DNA from: an uncultured Verrucomicrobiae bacterium
Lineage (GTDB): Bacteria; Chlamydiota; Chlamydiia; Chlamydiales; Rhabdochlamydiaceae
Direction of reading: 5' to 3'
NCBI GenBank assembly: GCA_963833965.1
Contig: CAWHZZ010000001.1
Coordinates: 520,274 to 584,273 of the forward strand
Length of the DNA stretch: 64,000 nucleotides
A program made the position numbers and the translations under genes. This document shows positions 43,901 through 53,734 of the stretch, in pieces; within the stretch, counting starts at the first letter, position 1, and each line of letters opens with the position of its first letter. Below the pieces are notes generated by a model. That model saw nothing but the letters and a program-made list of their open reading frames with translations. It ran no database searches and was not told where the DNA came from.

Positions 43901-45445
43901 ATGTATAACCAACTGATAAAAAACACTTATGCCGAAGATGATTCAAAAGTTGGGAATTGGGCAAGGCGGTTGCGCAAATTCCCAACTTTAGAATCATTTT
44001 CGGTATATATAGGAACAATCTTTTATTTGCTTTTCCACACGTGTGCACTCTGGGGTGACATTCCTCCCTCGCTACAAGGATTGCCTTACGGAATATACCC
44101 AACAAGTCCTACATATAATACTGAGCGTCTGAACTACAATAAACGCTTTGTCGTCTTTCCTCAGGCAATTTTTGCCCCTACAACAAATGATGAAGTCGTC
44201 TATGTCCTGACTCAATTGAAACAATATAACCTACCTTTTGCGGTCCGATCCGGAGGTCATTGCTTTGAACCGGGATCTCTATCCCCAGACTATGTGATCG
44301 ATGTTTCGAATTTTAACTCTATAATACCCAATATAGGAACTGGAGAAGTTTATATCGGAGCAGGTTGCCTTCTCTTGGATGTACTCAATGCCCTTGGTCT
44401 CATCGATTATGCTATCCCTTCCGGCGAATGCCCAACAGTAGGCATTACAGGGCTGACATTGGGGGGCGGCATAGGATTGCTAACCCGCCCCTACGGCCTG
44501 ACTTGCGATTCGGTAAAGAGCATTACTTTAGTCAATGCCGCATGCGAAGTGATCGAAGTTAATGAATCCAGCTACCCAGATCTATTTTGGGCTCTCCGTG
44601 GAGGTGGAAACGGATCTTATGGAATCGTCCTTGGCTTTACGTTTCAAATGCAATACATTCCAACGGTTACATACTATGAGCTTCTCTGGGAGTATGATGT
44701 GGACCTGATCGCTCCTTTGATGAAAGCCTGGCAATCCTGGGTTGGCACATTGCCCGATACGATTTCTTCAATATTGGGAATCCGACATCCAGGAAGTCTC
44801 GCTGCCTCACCTGCAACATCTCCACCGCTAACGATTCGTATATCTGGACTTAAATTAGGTTCAGCACCTTTCACGGAATGGCAAAGTGCTTTCTTTCGCT
44901 TTAACCCCACCATTACCCTGTTCACCGGGAGTTACCTCGATTCCTCAGCGTATTGGGCGAGGGAGAGCACAAAGCCTTTCAATAAGGCAAAGTCCAGAAT
45001 TTTGATGAACCCCATCACTTCGAAAACGACAAAGAAGATAACCAAGTTCTTTAAAAAAATCGATGCGACCAATCCAGATTATACGGTTTATTTTGAGTTC
45101 GATGCTTTAGGAGGAAAAACACCGGATAATCAAACCGCATTTTTCCCTCGCAATGCATTTGGATGGTGGTATCAGGCCTACTTTTGGGATTTTGAAGAGG
45201 AGACGCCACAAATATTAGCGCTTAGCAGAAACTTTTTCGCAAACATTCCTAATGAAGTGTCCAATTACTGCTATGCAAATGTCGTCGATTACGACCTTGG
45301 AAAATATTATCTTTGGGCCTACTACGGCAATCTTGCAGGACACCTAATCAAAATAAAGCAAAAATACGATCCGGCAAATTTTTTTAACTGGGAACAAAGC
45401 ATTCCCGTTATCAATTCCGTGCCAGGCAGTTTAATTGCTCAATAG
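43901..45445 (+). CDS. FAD-linked oxidase (FAD_binding_4 / berberine-bridge-enzyme-like)
   Basis: Motifs VRSGGHCFEPGS, GLTLGGGIG and LFWALRGGGNGSYGIV, with a C-terminal BBE-like YDPANFF. The ATG at 43901 is preferred over the overlapping TTG at 43847. Confidence 0.82.
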   Translation: MYNQLIKNTYAEDDSKVGNWARRLRKFPTLESFSVYIGTIFYLLFHTCALWGDIPPSLQGLPYGIYPTSPTYNTERLNYNKRFVVFPQAIFAPTTNDEVVYVLTQLKQYNLPFAVRSGGHCFEPGSLSPDYVIDVSNFNSIIPNIGTGEVYIGAGCLLLDVLNALGLIDYAIPSGECPTVGITGLTLGGGIGLLTRPYGLTCDSVKSITLVNAACEVIEVNESSYPDLFWALRGGGNGSYGIVLGFTFQMQYIPTVTYYELLWEYDVDLIAPLMKAWQSWVGTLPDTISSILGIRHPGSLAASPATSPPLTIRISGLKLGSAPFTEWQSAFFRFNPTITLFTGSYLDSSAYWARESTKPFNKAKSRILMNPITSKTTKKITKFFKKIDATNPDYTVYFEFDALGGKTPDNQTAFFPRNAFGWWYQAYFWDFEEETPQILALSRNFFANIPNEVSNYCYANVVDYDLGKYYLWAYYGNLAGHLIKIKQKYDPANFFNWEQSIPVINSVPGSLIAQ

Positions 45446-45465
45446 ATTGAGCTCTCTGTACTTGA

Positions 45466-45497
45466 CCGGTTCGCGGCATGCAGGCCGCTTCACTTCG
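45466..45497 (+). repeat. Isolated 32-nt fragment of the 148-bp repeat core, with its hairpin loop inverted
   Basis: CCGGTTCGCGGC-ATGCAG-GCCGCTTCACTTCG here versus CCGGTTCGCGGC-CTGCAT-GCCGCTTCACTTCG in the array units. The two are identical except that the 6-nt loop is reverse-complemented. Confidence 0.8.
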
Positions 45498-45839
45498 CCC
45501 TCCGGGCCAGTTCAAGCGATGCTTCGCACGCTTCCTTGGAACTTTCAATCGCATTTGCAGGCTTTCCTTACAATACAGACGGTAGATTCTTTTGTGGTTC
45601 ACGGACCACCCTTCCCGCTGCAACAAAGTGTGAATCCGACGATAACCATAGCGTACACGGATTGATGCGATTTCTTTGACCCGTTTAACTAAAAATGCCT
45701 GATCTCCTCGAATTGACTTGTAACGGTGCATAGATCGGCGAATATGCAGCACTGCACAAGCTCTTCTTTCGCTCACTCGATGAACGAGAACTAGCTCTTT
45801 GACTAGTTCGCGTTGGAGAGCAGGCTTTAAAGCTTTTTT
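45498..45839 (-). pseudogene. IS3-family transposase OrfB, N-terminal fragment only
   Basis: The -1 frame from the slippery site reads KKALKPALQRELVKELVLVHRVSERRACAVLHIRRS...YGYRRIHTLLQREGWSVNHKRIYRLYCKESLQMRLK. Similarity then ends where the repeat fragment begins. Confidence 0.75.
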
Positions 45840-46093
45840 GAAAGCACCTCTTGCAGCATGTGTTTGTCTAGATTCAAATCAGCTACAAGCTGCTTTAATC
45901 GACGATTTTCCTCTTCCAATTGTTTTAACCGTCGAAGTTCGGAAGGCATCAGCCCACCATATTTCTTCTTCCATTGGTAAAATGTTGCCTGCGAAATGCC
46001 AAGCTTGCGACAAATTTCGTCGATAATGGTTCCGTTTTCTGCCTGTTTCAAAGCGAAAACTATTTGCTCTTCCGTAAATTTGCTTTTCTTCAT
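45827..46093 (-). CDS. IS3-family transposase OrfA (HTH)
   Basis: MKKSKFTEEQIVFALKQAENGTIIDEICRKLGISQATFYQWKKKYGG...LEEENRRLKQLVADL. Confidence 0.85.
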   Translation of the reverse strand: MKKSKFTEEQIVFALKQAENGTIIDEICRKLGISQATFYQWKKKYGGLMPSELRRLKQLEEENRRLKQLVADLNLDKHMLQEVLSKKL

Positions 46094-46390: not shown

Positions 46391-46750
46391 ATGTTGCTAG
46401 TCCCGAAACTGAGGGTGCGCTTTTTTGCTACTGAAAACGGAAAAGAACCGGTCAAAGAATGGCTAAAAGAATTAACGAAAATTGAACGAAAAACCATTGG
46501 GGATGATATCAAAACTGTTCAGTTTGGTTGGCCCTTAGGAATGCCTCTTGTAAAAAATATAGGACAAGGCCTTTGGGAGGTAAGGAGCACCATTCCGAAT
46601 GGAATAGCTCGGGTGCTCTTTGTAGCTAAATCGGGCGAAATGATTCTTTTGCACGGGATCATCAAGAAAACTAATAAACTGCTTCCTCAAGAGAAGGCAC
46701 TAGCTCTAAAAAGATTAAAGCTATGGGAGAATCAAAATGAAAAAAAATAA
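46391..46750 (+). CDS. higB: Type II toxin, RelE/ParE superfamily, HigB / phage Gp49-like
   Basis: 119 aa with motifs FFATENGKEPVKEWLKEL, LWEVRS, ARVLFV and LLHGIIKKT. A 14-nt overlap with a downstream HTH gene gives the toxin-first order typical of Hig systems. Confidence 0.75.
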   Translation: MLLVPKLRVRFFATENGKEPVKEWLKELTKIERKTIGDDIKTVQFGWPLGMPLVKNIGQGLWEVRSTIPNGIARVLFVAKSGEMILLHGIIKKTNKLLPQEKALALKRLKLWENQNEKK

Positions 46751-47018
46751 ACACACCGGATCAGATTTTGATGATTTCCTCAAAGAAGAGGGAATCCTCG
46801 AAGAATGCACAGCTGAGGCTATCAAAAGGGTCATTGCATTTCAATTAGAGCAAGAAATGAAAAAGCAGAAAATTACAAAGTCTCAATTTGCAAAAATGCT
46901 CAAAACAAGCAGAGCAGCCATCGATCGCATTTTAGATCCCAACAAAAGCTGTAGTTTGAAATCGCTTGTGATGGCAGTTACCGCACTGGGTAAGCATTTA
47001 GAGATTAGGATTGCTTAA
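46737..47018 (+). CDS. higA: HTH (XRE-like) antitoxin, HigA-like
   Basis: 93 aa with the helix-turn-helix segment ITKSQFAKMLKTSRAAIDRILDP. Confidence 0.72.
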   Translation: MKKNKHTGSDFDDFLKEEGILEECTAEAIKRVIAFQLEQEMKKQKITKSQFAKMLKTSRAAIDRILDPNKSCSLKSLVMAVTALGKHLEIRIA

Positions 47019-47123: not shown

Positions 47124-48167
47124 ATGACAATCTGTGCAATGAAGTGTTTTTCTATCATCGGTGTATTCTTCTTTCTTTCCTGCCTATCAGCAGCAGAGTG
47201 TGAAAGTCGAGAAAAATTATGCGAGAAAATCATGAAAGGATTGCTAAAGGTCGAAGAGAGTGTACAGATCAGAAAAATGCAAGGAGGACTTAATGGAGCA
47301 GAGTTATTTTTTTCACACTTCGATGATAAAAATTATGTAATTCGCTTTCAGGCTCAAGATACATTACAAGAACGCAAAAGGGAAATCCTTGCTTGTACAA
47401 TTGCTTCTGAGGAGAAGTATGGGCCTAAAGTTTACCTTGCTGATGCAGACCAAGGCTTCATTGTAATGGAGCATTTAAAAAACGAACTGCCTCAGGAAGA
47501 TGAAATTCTGATGGCTTTAGCAAATTTGGCAAAACGAATCCATTCCAGCCTCCAGTTTCCATATAGCAAAAATTTCTTCGACCAAATAACAGGCAAGATT
47601 GACGAATATCTAGGCACGCAAAAAGCTCAAATGGAGTGTATCCCAAAAGACTGGCTGGAGAGATTAACTTCTGCATTACAAGAGATTCGTCAAGCCGCAG
47701 ACTATTATCCCCACACGGCCTTATGTCATCGAGACCTGCACGAGCAAAATTTATTTTTCTCAAATGGGCGCTTTATTGCGATCGACTACGAAATGGCAGC
47801 TCAAGACGACCCTTTTGTAGATTTAGCCATGATAACAGTTTCCCACGATCTCAACTTAGAGCAAGCAAAATTCTTCCTCGCTTCATACCTAGGTCATAAG
47901 CCTAATGTGCAGGAAGAGTCTAAACTCTTCCTGTATGAACAAGCGGTGCGGATATTTTGGGGATTTTGCCTGATTGCGTTGGTCCCAGATGGAACTCCGG
48001 AGATTCAGCAATCCTTAGCCACACGCGAGGCAAAGATGGCTAGCTATAGAACCCCTGACGGTCAACTAACTAACGCTGCCGTTCGCATGCGCCATGCGCT
48101 CTCGAATTTCAACTCGCAAGAATACCAAGAAGCACTCAAAGTACTCGGATATCCACAAAACCATTAA
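47124..48167 (+). CDS. Phosphotransferase of the APH/choline-ethanolamine kinase family with a signal-peptide-like N-terminus
   Basis: Brenner motif HRDLHEQNLFF followed by IAIDYEMAAQDDPFVDLA. Hydrophobic N-terminus MKCFSIIGVFFFLSCLSA. Confidence 0.72.
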   Translation: MTICAMKCFSIIGVFFFLSCLSAAECESREKLCEKIMKGLLKVEESVQIRKMQGGLNGAELFFSHFDDKNYVIRFQAQDTLQERKREILACTIASEEKYGPKVYLADADQGFIVMEHLKNELPQEDEILMALANLAKRIHSSLQFPYSKNFFDQITGKIDEYLGTQKAQMECIPKDWLERLTSALQEIRQAADYYPHTALCHRDLHEQNLFFSNGRFIAIDYEMAAQDDPFVDLAMITVSHDLNLEQAKFFLASYLGHKPNVQEESKLFLYEQAVRIFWGFCLIALVPDGTPEIQQSLATREAKMASYRTPDGQLTNAAVRMRHALSNFNSQEYQEALKVLGYPQNH

Positions 48168-48416
48168 AGCCTATTTGTCCCCTATTAATCGAACTTCTGC
48201 TTGGTAGCGGACAGCACCGTTTTTGGTTTTCCTTTCTCTGATAAATCCGATTCGGGGCTCGAGTTAATATTTAAAAGGAGGACTCGTCTTTGCCGTAAAT
48301 CCAAAGGAATCGACACTCAAAAGCGATCAGCAAAACTATTTTGATGACCATGTTCGGGTGATTTAAGGAAATCTAGCACTACGGCTATATTACGGCATTC
48401 TCCGGCAAGAGAAATG

Positions 48417-48579
48417 TGGCCAGAACTGGAATCCCCTCGCCGCGGGCAGCTTCGCTGTCCCGTCAGGTCGGGTCCGGTTGCGGGCGGTTTTTTGCGAAGC
48501 AAAAAGCATCGCTCCTCACTTCGATTCCAGACAAAAGCCACGCAGGTGGCTTTTTTCTGGCATATTTTCTTTGAAAATA
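48417..48579 (+). repeat. B-type repeat unit (163 bp) opening the tandem array
   Basis: Starts with TGGCCAGAACTGGAATC (tRNA-Phe 3' end, reverse complement). Contains hairpins GGGCAGC-ttc-GCTGTCCC and TTTTTTGC-gaa-GCAAAAA. Ends with the shared module TTCGATTCCAGAC-AAAAGCCACGCAGGTGGCTTTTTT-CTGGCATATTTTCTTTGAAAATA. A second copy lies at 51494..51648. Confidence 0.85.
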
Positions 48580-49467
48580 TGGCCAGAACTGGAATCCTTT
48601 CAGGCGATGCGCGCTACCCGCGCGTCGTCGTCCTGAAAGCCGGTTCGCGGCCTGCATGCCGCTTCACTTCGATTCCAGACAAAAGCCACGCAGGTGGCTT
48701 TTTTCTGGCATATTTTCTTTGAAAATATGGCCAGAACTGGAATCCTTTCAGGCGATGCGCGCTACCCGCGCGTCGTCGTCCTGAAAGCCGGTTCGCGGCC
48801 TGCATGCCGCTTCACTTCGATTCCAGACAAAAGCCACGCAGGTGGCTTTTTTCTGGCATATTTTCTTTGAAAATATGGCCAGAACTGGAATCCTTTCAGG
48901 CGATGCGCGCTACCCGCGCGTCGTCGTCCTGAAAGCCGGTTCGCGGCCTGCATGCCGCTTCACTTCGATTCCAGACAAAAGCCACGCAGGTGGCTTTTTT
49001 CTGGCATATTTTCTTTGAAAATATGGCCAGAACTGGAATCCTTTCAGGCGATGCGCGCTACCCGCGCGTCGTCGTCCTGAAAGCCGGTTCGCGGCCTGCA
49101 TGCCGCTTCACTTCGATTCCAGACAAAAGCCACGCAGGTGGCTTTTTTCTGGCATATTTTCTTTGAAAATATGGCCAGAACTGGAATCCTTTCAGGCGAT
49201 GCGCGCTACCCGCGCGTCGTCGTCCTGAAAGCCGGTTCGCGGCCTGCATGCCGCTTCACTTCGATTCCAGACAAAAGCCACGCAGGTGGCTTTTTTCTGG
49301 CATATTTTCTTTGAAAATATGGCCAGAACTGGAATCCTTTCAGGCGATGCGCGCTACCCGCGCGTCGTCGTCCTGAAAGCCGGTTCGCGGCCTGCATGCC
49401 GCTTCACTTCGATTCCAGACAAAAGCCACGCAGGTGGCTTTTTTCTGGCATATTTTCTTTGAAAATA
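48580..49467 (+). repeat. Six identical 148-bp tandem repeat units (A-type)
   Basis: Unit starts fall at 48580, 48728, 48876, 49024, 49172 and 49320. Identical phantom ORFs appear every 148 nt in the ORF track, and I compared two units base by base. Confidence 0.95.
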
Positions 49468-49511
49468 TGGCCAGAACTGGAATCGAACCAGCGACACAAG
49501 GATTTTCAGTC
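49468..49511 (-). repeat. Partial copy of tRNA-Phe (3'-terminal 44 nt, from the anticodon loop to the discriminator); att-like direct repeat
   Basis: Identical to 51649..51692. It diverges at 49512 and lacks the 5' half, so it is not a functional tRNA. Confidence 0.9.
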
Positions 49512-49744
49512 TTGAAAATCCGCTTCCGAACCTTGCCTTGGATTTCCTTTAATCAACTAAGATTCCCAAATTCTATAGAGGAATCCAGATTTTTTCCAGA
49601 AAATATTGGTAATCGAAAGCAATCCAAGTCAACTTTAGGAAACTGGCAACTCCGTTGAATTTCCGTTATTTTTCTATCTAGGACTGCTGGCTTTATATCC
49701 ACCTCTGGCCGGAGCTTCTGGCTATGCCTTTTTCGATTTTTTTA

Positions 49745-49771
49745 TTGACATTCCTTTTATTTTGGTACAAT
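49745..49771 (+). promoter_or_regulatory. Candidate abiE promoter
   Basis: TTGACA (49745..49750), a 15-nt spacer, then TACAAT (49766..49771). The inverted repeat GGTACAA...TTGTACC spans from the -10 element to the start codon. Confidence 0.35.
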
Positions 49772-49809
49772 ATTACGGATATAGATGAGAAAATCCGCTA
49801 TTTTGTACC

Positions 49810-50424
49810 ATGAAGAAAAAATCAAAGCTTGAATTAGCTATTGCCGCATTTAGAGAAGCAGGTGGGATTCTTACCATGTCTGAGGCTATAAAAGTTGGCA
49901 TCCATCGTCGAGAGCTTTATACCCTTCGAGATAAAGGAGACCTAGAAGTCATTAGCAGAGGCCTATATCGATTGGTTGATATGCCTGATCCCTCATTGCC
50001 CGACTTTATCCCTGTGGCAAAAAAAATTCCTCATGGAGTTATTTGCCTCATTTCTGCGCTCGCCTTTCACGAAATAACAACTCAAATCCCTCATTTCGTT
50101 TATGTTGCATTGCCAAGTCAAGCACACAAGCCTACGATCTCTCATCCCCCTATGCGTTATTTTTGGTACAGCCAAAAGCTATTAAATACGGGTGTTCAGG
50201 AACATTCCATAGATGGATGTACTGTTATGATCTTTGACGTTGAGAAAACCCTCGTTGATTGCGTTAAATTTCGCAATAAAATTGGAATGGATGTCGTCCT
50301 AGAAGCTCTAAAAATGTATTGGCAAAGCAGAAAGACAAATCTCGATAAGCTTTTTGAATATGCTAAATTATTCCGTGTCGAAAAGATTTTAAAACCGATT
50401 ATGGAGACAATCGTCAGTGGGTAA
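49810..50424 (+). CDS. abiEi: Type IV toxin-antitoxin system antitoxin AbiEi
   Basis: 204 aa. The N-terminal winged-helix segment GGILTMSEAIKVGIHRRELYTLRDKGDLEVISRGLYRL, followed by GVICLISALAFHEIT, is typical of AbiEi. Confidence 0.78.
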   Translation: MKKKSKLELAIAAFREAGGILTMSEAIKVGIHRRELYTLRDKGDLEVISRGLYRLVDMPDPSLPDFIPVAKKIPHGVICLISALAFHEITTQIPHFVYVALPSQAHKPTISHPPMRYFWYSQKLLNTGVQEHSIDGCTVMIFDVEKTLVDCVKFRNKIGMDVVLEALKMYWQSRKTNLDKLFEYAKLFRVEKILKPIMETIVSG

Positions 50425-51277
50425 TACAATCGAAAAACCAAAGAAGAATCTTAGCGAATCAATACGCCAGCGTTTAAAAAATTTGTCAGAGCAGAGGAAT
50501 CGACCTTTTGATGAAATACTTCGGTATTACGCTATGGAGAGATTTTTATATCGCCTTAGCATTAGCTCCCATGCTAAGAAATTCTTCCTTAAGGGCGGCT
50601 TAATACTGAAAGTCTGGGATTCATTGGATCATAGAGCAACAATGGATATAGATTTGCTTGCAAGAACCTCCAACCAAATTGATAACTTACATCGGATCAT
50701 TACAGAGGTTTCGGAAATTGCCTGTGAGGAAGATGGCATCGCTTTCGACACGCAAAAGCTTATTCTCCGCGACACACAGACAGGTGGGGATTATAACGGC
50801 GTAAGCAGTAGCTTTTCAGCAAAATTGTTCACAACAAAAATGCCCGTTCTTATTGACATTGGCTTTAACGACATTGTCATTCCTAAACCTCAGAAAATCA
50901 AATATCCCACCCTGTTAGATATGCCAGAACCAACTTTACTGGGTTATACCTTGGAAACCGTTATAGCTGAAAAACTCGAATCGGTGGTAAAACTTGCGCT
51001 CGTTAACACCCGTATGAAAGATTTTTACGATCTATGGACCATCTTAAAGAGGTATGAGATAAAACCAGACAAGTTAAATATTGCCATCCGAGAAGTATTT
51101 GCAAATCGCAAAACCCCTCTTAAGCATCCTATAGCGTTTACGCCAGAGTTTTATGACAACAAGGAGACTCAACTACGTTGGAATAATTTTCTGTCTGCTA
51201 TGGGCAAACAACATATTAAGTTTGAAGATGTTATCTTGGAGCTATCAAAATCCATAAATGGACTTCTTGAAGACTAA
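50417..51277 (+). CDS. abiEii: Nucleotidyltransferase toxin AbiEii/AbiGii (DUF1814)
   Basis: 286 aa with motifs LKNLSEQRNRPFDEILRYYAMERFLYRLS, FFLKGGLIL and TMDIDLLAR. The GTG start overlaps the abiEi stop by 8 nt. Confidence 0.78.
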   Translation: MGNTIEKPKKNLSESIRQRLKNLSEQRNRPFDEILRYYAMERFLYRLSISSHAKKFFLKGGLILKVWDSLDHRATMDIDLLARTSNQIDNLHRIITEVSEIACEEDGIAFDTQKLILRDTQTGGDYNGVSSSFSAKLFTTKMPVLIDIGFNDIVIPKPQKIKYPTLLDMPEPTLLGYTLETVIAEKLESVVKLALVNTRMKDFYDLWTILKRYEIKPDKLNIAIREVFANRKTPLKHPIAFTPEFYDNKETQLRWNNFLSAMGKQHIKFEDVILELSKSINGLLED

Positions 51278-51351
51278 TTGAGATATTACAATCCTTTATC
51301 GTCAATGGAGGAGCGCAATATTTTGAGCGACAAATCTCAAAGCTTGCGTTT

Positions 51352-51648
51352 AATTCACTCCGATTCTAGACAAAATTTTCTCCGAAAATTTTGGAAGGAA
51401 ACTGGAATCCTTTCAGGCGATGCGCGCTACCCGCGCGTCGTCGTCCTGAAAGCCGGTTCGCGGCCTGCATGCCGCTTCACTTCGATTCCAGACTACTGGA
51501 ATCCCCTCGCCGCGGGCAGCAAGCTGTCCCGTCAGGTCGGGTCCGGTTGCGGTCGGTTTTTGCTAACGCAAAAACATCGATCCTCACTTCGATTCCAGAC
51601 AAAAGCCACGCAGGTGGCTTTTTTTCTGGCATATTTTCTTTGAAAATA
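51352..51648 (+). repeat. Degenerate junction, one A-type core (51400..51493) and one B-type unit (51494..51648) abutting tRNA-Phe
   Basis: 51400..51493 matches the array core from AACTGGAATCC to TTCGATTCCAGAC. 51494..51648 matches the unit at 48417..48579, and most of the differences fall in hairpin loops. Confidence 0.85.
51601..51625 (-). terminator. Terminator hairpin downstream of tRNA-Phe (the same hairpin recurs in every repeat unit)
   Basis: The minus strand reads AAAAAAA-GCCAC-CTGC-GTGGC-TTTTG. The plus strand reads AAAA-GCCAC-GCAG-GTGGC-TTTTTTT. Confidence 0.6.
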
Positions 51649-51721
<73 letters not shown>

Positions 51722-51775
51722 AAAAGAGATGACGAACAAGATCAATAAGATAGAAAGTCGAGTGATTTAAGGCAA

Positions 51776-53734
51776 TCACTTTTGCGCGGTTTGTTTTGAA
51801 GCGGGTTTGATGATAGCCATGTCTTTGAGGATGTTGACGGCTTCGGCCATTTGCAGATCGATGACGCCCCAATTCGCCTGGGATGTCTGCCTAAAGACAT
51901 TGACGTTCTTGTCTTCTTCGATCGCTTTGAGATAGAGTGTGAAGTCTTTATTTTGTTTGAGGCGATAGCCGCTATTGTCTAGGAGCCTGGGGAGCATTTG
52001 GGTCCAATGCGAGAGCTTTTTTTGCAGGGCGGGCAGATAATTTTTCTGAAACCACTGTCTATTGCGGGGATCGACATCGCTCAACGGATCGACATAGGCC
52101 GAGGGAATTCGGTCGTTATTTAATGGGTATTCTAGATACCGTTCGCCGAGGGCAAACCCTGAGTACGCGGTTGGGACGACGATATCGGCTTGGACGCCAT
52201 CGATTTGGGTGGACCTGCCAGACACTGTGTAATAGCGTCCTACAGTGACTTTAAAAAATGAACTTGCTGCGGAGTCTGTTACTGTTTGGTATTGAATCGT
52301 TCCCTTGCCATAGGTGCGTTCATCGCCGACGACGATGCCGGTCCCATAATCTTGAAGGGCCTGGGCGACAATCTCTGCAGCGGAGGCGGAACCTTTAGAA
52401 GTGAGGATGACAAGCGGGCCGGTATAGTAACTGCGCCCGTCCAAGGCCCTCAAGTACTGCGTTTCGCCATAGGCGTATTTTGAGACGACGATAACACCAC
52501 TCGTGACAAAAAGGCCTGCGACTTTGACGGCCTGATTGAGAAAACCACCGGAGTTTTCCCGCATATCGAGAACGAGGCCGACAAGGTTGCCCTGTTTTTT
52601 AAGGACCCGCAAAGCTTCCCTCATCTCGATTTCGCAATTCGACCCTCCGGCGCTTTCATAGAACGAGGGGAGGTTAATTTTGCCGATGATTCCATCGCCG
52701 TAATGCTCAAATGAATACTGCACGCGGTCGTCTTGCATGACGATCTTTTCGCGTTTGAGATCGACACGGTAAATCTGGAATTCTCCATCAGCATGACGGA
52801 GTCCAAGTTGGACCCTGCCTTTGCCGGCGCCCTGAAGCCGTTTCAATATATCCTCATAGGGAACATCGATGATGCTCTGACCGTCGACTTCGACAAGGAG
52901 ATCGCCAGGGTTAATCTTCCCGGAGCGCTGGGCGGGGCCCCCTTTGATCATGTCGTGAATGACCACTCCATCAATGCTTTCACGCAAAACGACGCCAATC
53001 CCGTCAAACTGCTTTTCCAAACTGGTCCGCATTTCGTGGGCCTCTTCGGGACTGTAATAAGAGGTATGGGCATCCAGGCTTTTGGCAAGGGCCTTCAAAG
53101 TATGCATGCACAAATAATGCTCCGATGCGGAGTCTTGCAAATAGGTGTTTTCGAGCCTGACAAATCGCCTCTCCCAAAGCGCAAAAATTTTTTTTCGCTG
53201 CTCTGGCGTGAGAGCGGTCAGTTTATTTGCCTGTTTTTCGACCCAGACCACTCGCTGAAGCTGCCGCCGGACCCTCTCTTTCAGTTCTTTTTCATTGCGA
53301 GGGTAGTCGACGTAGGCACCTCCAGTCCCCATCTGCACCTCATCGCCGTCTGCGATGAGCTCTACTTTAAGTTCCTCTCGATAGCCTTGGGCCCTGACGA
53401 TCGCCTCTTGGATAATTTGATTTAATTTTTGATACTCGGAAAGATCGTCCTGATAGTATTTTTGAATGACAGACTTGATTTTATCTTCTTTAGGCTCCAA
53501 ATAGGGCTTCACTTCCCCTAATAACAGATAGACTTTGTCGGGATCAAACTGTTCAATGAAAATTTTAAGAGAGCGCTTCGCGACGAGTGGAGAAAATTCT
53601 TTATATTCGACGTGGTAGCCGAAAATATCCTGCATTGTCTTCCTGACGTTTTCCTTTCTCAGCTGGAATTCGCCGGGTTGGAACGCGAAGAGAAGAAACA
53701 ACGCTGCTGGCAGAAATAGGCGAAGAAATAACAT
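51776..53734 (-). CDS. tsp: Tail-specific (C-terminal processing) protease, S41 family, with a PDZ domain
   Basis: 652 aa with a signal peptide. The PDZ segment is GGPAQRSGKINPGDLLVEVDG and the S41 core is LVILTSKGSASAAEIVAQAL. Confidence 0.88.
   Translation of the reverse strand: MLFLRLFLPAALFLLFAFQPGEFQLRKENVRKTMQDIFGYHVEYKEFSPLVAKRSLKIFIEQFDPDKVYLLLGEVKPYLEPKEDKIKSVIQKYYQDDLSEYQKLNQIIQEAIVRAQGYREELKVELIADGDEVQMGTGGAYVDYPRNEKELKERVRRQLQRVVWVEKQANKLTALTPEQRKKIFALWERRFVRLENTYLQDSASEHYLCMHTLKALAKSLDAHTSYYSPEEAHEMRTSLEKQFDGIGVVLRESIDGVVIHDMIKGGPAQRSGKINPGDLLVEVDGQSIIDVPYEDILKRLQGAGKGRVQLGLRHADGEFQIYRVDLKREKIVMQDDRVQYSFEHYGDGIIGKINLPSFYESAGGSNCEIEMREALRVLKKQGNLVGLVLDMRENSGGFLNQAVKVAGLFVTSGVIVVSKYAYGETQYLRALDGRSYYTGPLVILTSKGSASAAEIVAQALQDYGTGIVVGDERTYGKGTIQYQTVTDSAASSFFKVTVGRYYTVSGRSTQIDGVQADIVVPTAYSGFALGERYLEYPLNNDRIPSAYVDPLSDVDPRNRQWFQKNYLPALQKKLSHWTQMLPRLLDNSGYRLKQNKDFTLYLKAIEEDKNVNVFRQTSQANWGVIDLQMAEAVNILKDMAIIKPASKQTAQK

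Follow-up and report, generated by a model that had tools for sequence, protein, structure and literature searches.

A tRNA-Phe-linked family of structured repeat units of RtT-like design in environmental Chlamydiae

The window analysed here, a 64,000-nt stretch of chlamydial DNA, contains members of one family of structured units, about 100-150 nt long, that is linked to tRNA-Phe in environmental Chlamydiae. The units have a common anatomy, occupy a fixed position and orientation behind the tRNA, contain two hairpins (H1 and H3) that covary, and have been amplified in tandem. The closest known elements are the RtT repeats of E. coli (RF00391; rttR, tpr), the 178-bp repeats distal to tyrT. We give about an even chance to the reading that the units are of RtT-like design, with arrays that may grow in place, an RNA that may be processed as a tRNA trailer, and hairpins that may form a transcription barrier.

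Anatomy of the units and organization of the tRNA-Phe locus

The tRNA-Phe (GAA) gene lies at 51649..51721 on the minus strand, with no encoded CCA (ARAGORN; Rfam tRNA, 73 bits). Its last 17 nt (51649-51665, minus strand), designated repeat X (GATTCCAGTTCTGGCCA), occur in nine exact copies, and full units terminate in this sequence. Read in the tRNA sense, the first part of a unit consists of a spacer hairpin, GGCCAGAA, H1, CUGGAAUC-GAAGUGA and H3, followed by GAACCGG, a further hairpin (H2) and GAUUCCAGUUCUGGCCA, which is the 17-nt tRNA-Phe end. The unit opens with an inverted complement of about the last 20 nt of the tRNA (GGCCAGAA ... CTGGAATCGAA), which H1 usually interrupts, and finishes with the last 17 nt in direct orientation. 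These two copies pair in a closing helix of 15-16 bp that recreates the stack of acceptor and T stems and surrounds two freely variable hairpins, which are joined by the invariant linkers GAAGUGA and GAACCGG. The acceptor-like helix tracks the local tRNA variant: at loci L008 and L028, GGCCGGA/TCCGGCC is found in both the tRNA and the unit.

The preliminary description of this DNA had defined A and B cores by their CTGGAATC...GATTCCAG ends. These are real, since the pattern CTGGAATC-N(70-100)-GATTCCAG was found nine times in the window, always on the plus strand, and never in 100 shuffles, and the coordinates given for the cores were right to within 2 nt. Seven of the nine are identical 90-nt A cores (beginning at 48589, 48737, 48885, 49033, 49181, 49329 and 51402), and two are B cores (B1, 48426-48530; B2, 51496-51598). 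The terminal 8-bp inverted repeat had been described as identical to part of the tRNA. The identity holds (TTCGATTCCAG is the T-loop plus the 3' T-stem of tRNA-Phe), but it is longer than claimed, as full units terminate with all 17 nt of X. The inverted repeat reaches about 16 bp when the acceptor-like helix is counted. Each core is enclosed by an additional helix, GCCAGAA/TTCTGGC, and a 9-bp hairpin, both of which the preliminary description had overlooked.

A and B had also been regarded as two families. They are instead subtypes of one family, as a single covariance model, R1, detects both (A at 130 bits, B at 79-98 bits) and their arms are interchangeable. The B unit of L021 combines the H3 of B2 with the H2 loop of B1, L004a and L004c have a common core and different H1 hairpins, and H3 is found as exact reverse complements between copies (flip/flop).

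All units in the window are on the minus strand, like the tRNA. Between the tRNA 3' end and the first unit is a spacer with an AT-rich hairpin (TATTTTCAAAGAAAATAT, 51631..51648, read from the sequence). The predicted fold then gives an acceptor-like 5' strand, GCCAGAA (51624-51630, within 51601..51630), and H1, AAAAGCCAC-CTGC-GTGGCTTTT (51601-51622), which is 95-100% paired across copies. The B2 core (51496..51598; R1 match 51494-51633, 79 bits) is closed by the 8-bp stem S (CTGGAATC/GATTCCAG), inside which are the linker GAAGTGA, a long H3, the linker GCAACCGG and H2. Joined to B2 without a spacer or H1 is the seventh copy of the A core (51402..51491; R1, 76 bits), in which the acceptor 3' strand is degenerate (TTTCCTTCC); the same B-A fusion is present in L021. 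The remnant of a third unit (51352..51401, read from the sequence) consists of a spacer-like hairpin and GTCTAGAATCGGAGTGAA, a degenerate 5' strand of stem S with the first linker. This remnant is truncated by the abiE cargo, and a homologous remnant is found in L004 (3843-3953).

The cargo is an abiEi-abiEii toxin-antitoxin pair on the plus strand (49810..51277; Pfam AbiEi_4, 2e-10; AbiEii, 5e-42). It belongs to a mini-island without an integrase, and is context that lies outside the unit. A conserved right arm of this island family, on the attR side (49511..49610, minus strand), is common to L004, L006 and L018 and is directly upstream of a displaced tRNA-Phe 3' half of about 43 nt (49468..49510, minus strand; ARAGORN 'tRNA-???'; Rfam tRNA, 22.7 bits), which begins in the anticodon loop and is the att repeat of the island. 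Next on the minus strand are six identical 148-nt A units in tandem, each made up of spacer, H1, A core and X (48580..49467; R1, 130 bits each). TRF reported 6.5 copies of period 148 nt with 100% identity (48516-49484), a perfect array that had escaped the preliminary description, and the junction between the 148-nt repeats was found in three independent soil metagenome runs. The last unit of the array, B1 (48417..48579, minus strand; R1, 98 bits), ends in X at 48417-48433. It is followed by the remnant of a leader of about 200 nt (48306..48410, minus strand; blastn to the flank of L003, 75% over 113 nt), which in related genomes precedes the island integrase; the integrase itself is absent from the window. 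An orphan unit fragment, CGAAGTGA-GCGGCCTGCATGCCGC-GAACCGG (45425..45499, minus strand; R1, 25 bits, E = 5e-4), adjoins a truncated IS3 transposase, and its H3 matches that of the A core exactly, but in reverse complement.

Two other identities for the units were considered and rejected. ARAGORN and the Rfam tRNA model recognised the true tRNA and the fragment of 43 nt but none of the units, which by these models are not tRNA genes or pseudogenes. Open reading frames through the arrays are not coding, as the periods are not multiples of three and the loops contain indels; no conserved ORF is possible in the units because periods of 121-148 nt and loop indels shift the frame. At gathering and permissive thresholds, Rfam returned tRNA only and no other family.

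Covariation of the hairpins and transcriptional context

Cores and full units fold better than shuffled sequences (z = -3 to -7.4, with -7.4 for the full unit), and the cloverleaf-like, multi-branch fold with a closing stem, which the preliminary description had predicted, was recovered in nearly all of 19 variants. Covariation was analysed in 34 distinct copies from about 20 genomes. Double (compensatory) changes were found in 6-7 of the 9 pairs of H1, in all 5 pairs of H3, and in 18 pairs overall, a level of covariation reached by none of 500 shuffles. Paired cells made up 91.7% of the total, compared with about 45% when partners were slid by one column. The earlier proposal that the hairpins are under structural constraint is borne out by these counts.

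B1 and B2 differ at six places, all of which preserve the fold. Two are the loop changes quoted previously, and these had been reported correctly. The others include a compensatory pair, G-C to U-A (gcggGcgg/cgCtcc to gcggTcgg/cgAtcc on the plus strand), and a paired deletion of the mismatched T and G that flank the TTTTTGC/GCAAAAA stem. A kissing contact of CUGC in the H1 loop with GCAG in the H3 loop was considered and rejected, as no covariation was apparent by inspection.

The stems are Watson-Crick only: among approximately 438 cells of H1 and H3 there were 5 G-U pairs in the tRNA sense and 10 A-C. Neither the comparison of G-U with A-C nor the folding energies of the two strands indicated a strand preference. 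Such stems are unusual for an RNA made from one strand and fit pairing at the DNA level or use of both strands.

A scan for promoters found none within the units, and a look-up of sequencing runs for the element matched only soil DNA runs and no RNA run. By eye, H1 consists of an A-run, GCCAC-CTGC-GTGGC and a T-run and is terminator-shaped in both directions, but the consensus scan did not list it, and its U-run is not conserved in the tRNA sense. At other loci the spacer position is occupied by a covarying small hairpin or by a strong two-way terminator. The spacers of L001, L002, L018 and L040 combine G+C stems with T9 runs, and those of L001, L018 and L040 appear by eye to be textbook two-way terminators. 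With a strong terminator between tRNA and unit, as at these four loci, co-transcription of the two would need read-through.

Distribution, tandem arrays and integrative islands

The search for further copies that had been suggested earlier yielded more than 50, in about 20 chlamydial metagenome genomes. All of them are directly 3' of tRNA-Phe or of its displaced 3' half, in the tRNA sense. The copies in the window are confined to 45.4-51.7 kb, and the tRNA-Ser in the same window is associated only with an ordinary terminator, with no similar unit nearby. A complete 2.28-Mb chromosome contained a single match, which indicates one locus per genome, as far as an exact-pattern scan that may miss divergent copies can show. 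No copies were found by BLAST against plasmids and phages or by a pattern scan of viral contigs. When genomes were sampled via the neighbouring tsp gene, a unit was present in four of eight, and decayed copies exist, which together indicate that the unit is dispensable. Linkers and layout were unchanged between genomes with no more than about 58-75% identity in the neighbouring Tsp protein, a divergence at which the spacers and arms have fully turned over. No earlier description of these repeat units was found in the literature on Chlamydiae.

The arrays are runs of identical units: six A units in the window, three and six units in L004, and four in L012. Such blocks fit local amplification, which predicts them, and in L001 the repeat takes in all 43 nt of the spacer, a mark of tandem duplication. 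Internal units of the L023 array have no acceptor 3' strand (no X) and lack half of H1.

The units are part of the 3' flank of the tRNA, and integrative islands, whose insertion point is the anticodon loop, take them along. Ten displaced tRNA halves of about 43-49 nt were found, and most are followed by a spacer and one or more units, although the half in L010, at least, is not. In L028 the island separates the tRNA from a displaced half of 49 nt, after which come the spacer and unit. Units are found without any island in L011, L012 and L042, and islands adjoin the tRNA without any unit in L020, L022, L027 and L030. The integrase has only a plain Phage_integrase domain; the islands also encode primase-helicase-type proteins (DnaB/AAA_25, DUF5906, DUF927), and the tRNA-Phe site is used by at least two recombinase families. 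Next to the units are AbiE, MazF or Schlafen-type genes or nothing, and the cargo genes are in mixed orientation. AbiE islands recur at the tRNA-Phe site, where the other cargo also consists of toxin-antitoxin or defence genes. No HUH, relaxase or extra recombinase gene was found to recur beside the units. The possibility that the unit is the att core of the neighbouring integrase was rejected, as the crossover repeat is 43-49 nt and starts from the anticodon loop, and so was the possibility that the linkers are integrase arm sites, as the island arms contain other repeats.

Comparison with known systems and alternative explanations

In E. coli, RtT units are directly 3' of tyrT/tyrV, as a tandem repeat of 178 nt present in 3.1 copies that ends in the last 19 nt of the tRNA. 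RttR, the RNA encoded by one tyrT repeat unit (PMC3318445, citing Bosl and Kersten 1991; see also bioRxiv 10.1101/2024.07.17.603846), is closed in the E. coli reference by GGGGAAGGAU/AUCCUUCCCC around internal hairpins. Like the chlamydial units, RtT repeats are in tandem directly 3' of a tRNA on the same strand, each finishes with the exact 3'-terminal sequence of the tRNA (19 nt in RtT, 17 nt here), and the multi-hairpin fold, about 130 nt in size, is closed in both by an inverted complement of that end lying upstream. The two differ in the tRNA (tRNA-Tyr or tRNA-Phe) and the phylum, and have no sequence similarity; the RF00391 model, which detects four E. coli units at 133-138 bits, had no match at E <= 10 in 48200-51800 of the window, nor at E <= 1 in four other loci. 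The chlamydial units further differ in a closing helix split by H1, in hypervariable arms and in their entanglement with integrative islands, and they have no conserved ORF, whereas the RtT repeat carries the small tpr ORF.

In the RtT-like reading, the arrays would expand and shrink as the tRNA-identical ends undergo unequal recombination or slippage. The unit would be transcribed as a tRNA-Phe trailer and excised by tRNA-processing enzymes, as RtT is, and H1 and the spacer hairpins may block transcription in both directions between the island genes and the single tRNA-Phe gene. By analogy, our best guess for the function is a structured tRNA trailer, released or insulating as for RtT, though the analogy offers little mechanism.

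Several other known systems share part of this design. The att repeats of P4-like, tRNA-targeting islands with a tyrosine integrase also involve direct repeats of the 3' part of a tRNA, at a tRNA-Phe integration site. Integration of elements is known to leave partial tRNA genes behind (PMC9897764), and the window contains a classical displaced half with island arms as well. However, the island att repeat is 43-49 nt from the anticodon loop, whereas a unit has 17 nt together with an inverted copy and covarying hairpins, and units occur without islands and many islands without units. Integron attC sites and the folded single-stranded attP of CTX phage resemble the units in being imperfect palindromes, 60-140 nt long, whose ends and unpaired bases are conserved and whose central structure varies, arrayed beside a tyrosine recombinase and toxin-antitoxin cassettes. 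In contrast to attC, the units have CTGGAATC/GATTCCAG ends with no R''/R' core motifs (RYYYAAC/GTTRRRY), no IntI-type integrase and cargo in mixed orientation, and the att site of the neighbouring integrase is an ordinary double-stranded one in the tRNA. Type III toxin-antitoxin repeats (in tandem, about 35-45 nt, immediately upstream of a ToxN/AbiQ-type toxin) were rejected as a match, since the units are 105-150 nt and have different neighbours.

The strongest competitor of the RtT-like reading, which we regard as possible but clearly less probable, is that the unit acts as DNA, either as a target-specific mini mobile element or as a folded single-stranded or cruciform recombination site like attC or the CTX attP. 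A recombinase acting in trans would insert it at the 3' end of tRNA-Phe and regenerate X, so that arrays build up; the invariant linkers would be motifs for protein binding or cleavage, and the hairpins variable stuffer. Watson-Crick-only stems without strand bias, the flip/flop of H3, the exact 17-nt direct repeats of the tRNA end that flank each full unit, and the two invariant linkers beside freely variable arms all favour this, as do the patchy presence, the decayed copies, the coexistence of unit types with reassorted arms (L021; L004a/L004c), the use of the site by at least two recombinase families and the integrity of units behind strong terminators. However, the only integrase seen beside the units crosses over in the anticodon loop with 43-49-nt repeats, has arm repeats unlike the linkers and is found in islands without units. 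The arrays are identical blocks rather than mixtures, as amplification in place predicts, internal units of L023 lack X, the orientation never flips, and neither a recurrent HUH, relaxase or extra recombinase gene nor copies on viral contigs, plasmids or phages were found. On these data we consider scarcely credible a lead from the preliminary description, namely that the unit is a MITE, a non-autonomous transposon bounded by 8-bp terminal inverted repeats. Like MITEs, REP/BIME and other dispersed palindromes, the units are short, non-coding, hairpin-forming and multi-copy, and the cores have terminal inverted repeats, but they are found at the tRNA-Phe locus only, in one orientation, with nothing similar at tRNA-Ser and no related transposase found. 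Target-site duplications are absent, and what flanks the copies is the 17-nt tRNA end and a repeated spacer, which is the pattern of tandem duplication.

It is rather unlikely that the units are functionless leftovers of repeated recombination at an integration hot spot, with palindromes kept perfect by template switching during replication rather than by selection. Such quasi-palindrome correction is an established mutational mechanism, and it would account for Watson-Crick-only stems; the dispensability and decay of the unit, the varying array sizes and pieces that are all tRNA-derived (about 20 nt inverted and 17 nt direct) are also consistent with debris. Against this, the linkers GAAGTGA/GAACCGG and the layout are constant over a range of Tsp divergence in which the spacers and arms have been replaced, and the GTGA and the G in CCGG are not copied from the tRNA, which rules out gene conversion from it as their explanation; in addition, the H1 loop CTGC keeps one orientation over different stems. 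An RNA mimic of the tRNA acceptor arm, serving as decoy or antidote for toxins of tRNA 3' ends, such as the adjacent AbiEii/MenT-type nucleotidyltransferase, is very improbable. MenT toxins do modify tRNA acceptor ends, the closing helix copies the acceptor/T stack and 3' end of tRNA-Phe, AbiEii adjoins units in the window, AbiE islands recur at the site and the remaining cargo is of toxin-antitoxin or defence type. However, units are also found beside quite different cargo and, in L011, L012 and L042, beside no cargo at all, AbiE is already paired with a protein antitoxin, and the unit has no anticodon arm.

RtT has remained an orphan curiosity since its description, found, as far as has been searched, only in E. 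coli and close relatives. The chlamydial family is a second, unrelated family of the same design in another phylum, which suggests that the design recurs at tRNA genes, as a solution or as a by-product, and is not an accident. With its many variants it provides far more comparative signal than RtT, and it sits where defence and toxin-antitoxin islands accumulate. The covariance model R1 is available for annotating the element, which at present is either overlooked by tRNA finders, Rfam and gene callers or mistranslated as ORFs. More speculatively, and we think this unlikely, the units may be a hitherto unrecognised class of tRNA-end mimics active in the chlamydial tRNA-Phe hot spot, either as folded single-stranded DNA sites inserted and amplified by a recombinase, an attC-like system based on a tRNA end, or as processed RNAs that imitate the acceptor arm and buffer the tRNA-targeting toxins of the accompanying defence islands. 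If either were true, the E. coli RtT would be the first described example of a widespread, convergently evolved kind of element.

Anatomy and fold of the tRNA-Phe-distal repeat

The repeat unit is derived from tRNA-Phe and bound to its locus. In the tRNA sense (the minus strand of the window), a full unit starts with a spacer hairpin, (G)GCCAGAA, a 9-bp hairpin (H1), GU and CUGGAAUC, followed by the linker GAAGUGA, hairpin H3, the linker (C)GAACCGG(C), hairpin H2, G and GAUUCCAG-UUCUGGCCA. The final 17 nt are the final 17 nt of tRNA-Phe, found as nine exact copies in the window, while at the start, GGCCAGAA...CUGGAAUCGAA corresponds to the final 20 nt of the tRNA in reverse complement, split by H1 (uninterrupted in L040, one of the compared loci and contigs, L001-L042, which are mostly from chlamydial metagenome genomes). 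Because the two ends repeat the tRNA end, one inverted and one direct, they pair as an acceptor-like 7-bp helix and an 8-bp stem, a closing helix that mirrors the tRNA's own acceptor/T-stem stack. This 8-bp stem is the terminal inverted repeat of the preliminary description, which had correctly placed the elements and matched their termini to the tRNA T arm. Its proposed multi-branch fold was recovered as well: a three-way junction with two inner hairpins had the lowest energy in almost every one of 19 variants, and the full unit had a folding energy of -74.6 kcal/mol (z = -7.4).

The pattern CTGGAATC-N(70-100)-GATTCCAG had nine matches in the window, all on the + strand, and none in 100 shuffles. 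The seven A cores were 90 nt each and mutually identical; the two B cores were 105 and 103 nt (in B1, 48417-48579, and B2, 51494-51648). Six A units and one B unit formed a head-to-tail array with a 148-nt period and 100% identical copies (48417-49484), adjoined by a tRNA-Phe 3' fragment (49468-49510). A second group, made up of B2, one A core and a third, truncated unit (51352-51648), was directly beside the intact tRNA-Phe (51649-51721, minus strand). Read in the tRNA sense, the tRNA is followed by B2, A and the remnant of a unit, then by abiEii and abiEi, the right arm of the island, the displaced half of the tRNA, six A units with B1, and the remnant of the leader. Locus L004 had the same plan, and the A-unit repeat junction was found in contigs from three independent soil runs. 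Long ORFs span the arrays (window 48414-48722, +, 102 aa; L004 5543-6716, -, up to 362 aa); gene callers would call them, and they were rejected as artefacts of the repeats.

A and B units differed in their inner arms alone, B carrying an additional AT hairpin inside H3 and differing in H2. The two kinds had been described as separate families, but a single covariance model of the unit (R1) scored both (A 130 bits, B 79-98 bits), and they are subtypes of one family. The H2 3' strand in many units (window 48589-48678 and relatives) was CCTGAAAG-GATTCC, resembling the tRNA-Phe anticodon loop CTGAAAA, and in L042 (8165-8173) the 5' strand of the 8-bp stem was CTGAAAATC, the anticodon-loop sequence itself. 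This likeness is either chance or a trace of the origin of the unit.

Structural constraint and the question of strand

In 34 distinct copies, 91.7% of cells were paired, compared with ~45% when partners were shifted one column, 18 pairs were changed on both sides, and none of 500 shuffles reached the observed covariation; a 19-sequence MAFFT alignment gave the same picture. Double changes occurred in 7 of the 9 pairs of H1 and in all 5 of H3, which bears out the structural constraint on the hairpins proposed in the preliminary description. The loop differences reported there between B1 and B2 were also correct: the six differences amounted to a compensatory pair change, a paired deletion and two changes in loops, and therefore leave the fold intact. 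The acceptor-like helix was 78% paired and matched the local tRNA variant (GGCCGGA/TCCGGCC in both tRNA and unit of L008 and L028). The 8-bp stem and both linkers were invariant across intact copies and decayed, without compensation, in old ones. H2 could be as short as a 4-bp hairpin or exceed 40 nt, and H1 can be missing (L040). The hairpins and the two linkers are under selection.

The main rival to a role in RNA is that the unit acts at the DNA level, as a recombinase substrate or a folded single strand. The ~438 cells of H1 and H3 included 5 G-U cells in the tRNA sense, 10 A-C cells (G-U in the opposite sense) and 16 other mismatches, so wobble pairs were tolerated no better than other mismatches, which is unusual for an RNA acting on one strand. 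Folding energies were similar for both strands, and H3 was found as exact reverse complements in the A core (GCGGCATGCAGGCCGC) and the 45.4-kb copy (GCGGCCTGCATGCCGC), as well as in L011 versus L018 and L042. Other features were orientation-specific: the orientation of the unit relative to the tRNA was never inverted, the H1 loop CUGC was kept in a single sense over differing stems, most H2 tips were GNA triloops in the tRNA sense, and only in that sense would tandem G-A pairs be possible in the purine-rich linkers. Look-ups in RNA runs found no unit sequence. By eye, H1 and the spacer have the shape of a two-way terminator, facing convergent abiE and kinase genes in the window, and a function on both strands would also explain why the stems contain Watson-Crick pairs only.

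Distribution and islands at tRNA-Phe

A scan for exact termini in a database of one genome per species identified 10 loci, spread over 9 metagenome-assembled genomes that carry the labels Chlamydiae, Chlamydiia, Rhabdochlamydiaceae, Simkaniaceae and 'Verrucomicrobiae', and a metagenome scan added six further true loci. No copies were found in searches of viral contigs, plasmids and phages. The gene backbone, rpsL-rpsG-fusA ... tsp - tRNA-Phe, is chlamydial; a Pom-family outer membrane protein is also encoded in the window. Every copy immediately followed a tRNA-Phe 3' end and had the orientation of the tRNA, and at least one defining feature of MITEs was absent. The preliminary description was confirmed in its observations and partly right in its interpretation, the hairpin constraint holding and the MITE lead and the two families falling away. 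With homologues of the adjacent Tsp protease as the entry point, so that sampling did not depend on the unit, the locus was examined in 8 genomes; the unit was beside tRNA-Phe in four (L021, L023, L040 and L042) and missing there in four (L020, L022, L032 and L036), indicating that it is widespread, old and dispensable. Tsp identity among unit-carrying genomes was as low as 58%.

The tRNA-Phe site is a hot spot for islands. A well-conserved tyrosine integrase family (341 proteins at E <= 1e-20, the best 120 of the 341 being 64-97% identical to the query) was found behind tRNA-Phe in many chlamydiae, preceded by a conserved leader of ~200 nt and followed by primase-helicase-type genes (DnaB/AAA_25, DUF5906, DUF927). 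An integrase 76% identical to that of the tRNA-Phe island, with the same leader motifs, was at tRNA-Asn in L025 (7717-9065), a target switch inside one integrase family. Island boundaries were marked by a displaced tRNA-Phe 3' half beside a conserved right arm. Since these halves, 43-49 nt, start in the anticodon loop, the crossover is outside the 17-nt end, and this location ruled out the unit as the att core of the integrase.

L028 ran from the tRNA through the leader and integrase ... to the right arm, the displaced half, the spacer with its unit, and the chromosome. Most of the ten displaced halves were followed by the spacer and one or more units (the L010 half, at least, was not), units occurred without any island trace (L011, L012, L042), and islands occurred without a unit (L020, L022, L027, L030). 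Units therefore belong to the tRNA 3' flank and are pushed aside by an incoming island. They can also be captured between the island tRNA half and the leader (L003, L007, L021 and, with the B2-A pair, the AbiE mini-island of the window), which explains near-identical units in different genomes. This integrase-less mini-island (49468-51647) holds abiEi/abiEii (49810-51277, +), flanked by the intact tRNA-Phe and by a displaced 3' half of 43 nt, which ARAGORN labelled 'tRNA-???' with a 4-base anticodon. Its conserved right arm is at 49511-49610, and a leader remnant (48306-48410) had 75% identity to the ~200-nt integrase leader of L003, L007 and L020. The window has lost the integrase gene itself. 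Arrays consisted of identical units in blocks, the pattern that unequal recombination or slippage between tRNA-identical ends would produce and serial insertion of different elements would not, and the L023 array was duplicated in another phase, with the acceptor strand missing. The units have been amplified in place and hitch-hike on islands.

In another chlamydial lineage (L036-L039; ~8280-13620 in L036), a large serine recombinase was directly beside tRNA-Phe (in L036 Resolvase, Recombinase and Zn ribbon, 540 aa), again in an island with AbiEii/AbiEi; two unrelated recombinase families thus use the site, and AbiE is recurrent cargo. Between successive displaced halves, L004 and L006 (one contig) and L008 carried MazF/PemK, a Schlafen AlbA_2 ATPase, Bro-N and an AAA_16/STAND-like ATPase. 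This cargo is defence or TA-like, and the tRNA-Phe flank is a defence-island accretion zone. To the left of the window array, apparent further cargo comprised a HigB-like Gp49 and HTH_37 pair (46391-47018), together with an APH/choline-kinase-like gene (47124-48167). An IS3-family element (45411-46093; OrfA 45827-46093, -; truncated OrfB with HTH_21, 45411-45776, -) has its truncated OrfB end exactly at an orphan linker-H3-linker piece of the unit. In L018, a full tRNA-Phe, terminator, unit and two-gene module (HTH protein, 142-aa protein) occurred twice in tandem, 2746 nt apart, either a mini-island duplicated with the whole tRNA gene or an assembly effect.

Comparison with known systems and proposed function

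The closest known system lies distal to tyrT/tyrV in E. coli (NC_000913.3), where 3.1 repeat units of 178 nt immediately follow the 3' end of the tRNA on its own strand. Each E. coli unit ends with the final 19 nt of tRNA-Tyr, compared with the final 17 nt of tRNA-Phe in the chlamydial unit. When folded, the annotated rttR RNA had a closing helix, GGGGAAGGAU/AUCCUUCCCC, formed by inverted and direct copies of the tRNA end and enclosing internal hairpins. The Rfam model of these RtT repeats, RF00391, detected four E. coli units (133-138 bits), and an Rfam search with the chlamydial units matched neither it nor any other family. The two share a design and are, on this evidence, probably not homologous. 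For tRNAs, att cores, attC sites and type III antitoxins, at least one defining feature was absent from the units. They form a well-supported new family of an old, poorly understood kind, the RtT-like tRNA-distal repeats.

The RtT analogy, together with position and orientation, suggests that the unit may be a structured trailer of the tRNA-Phe transcript, with a tRNA-like closing helix that would let tRNA-processing enzymes excise it. The tRNA-Phe gene would have to stay functional despite the islands, and H1 and the spacer would insulate it from island genes in both directions.
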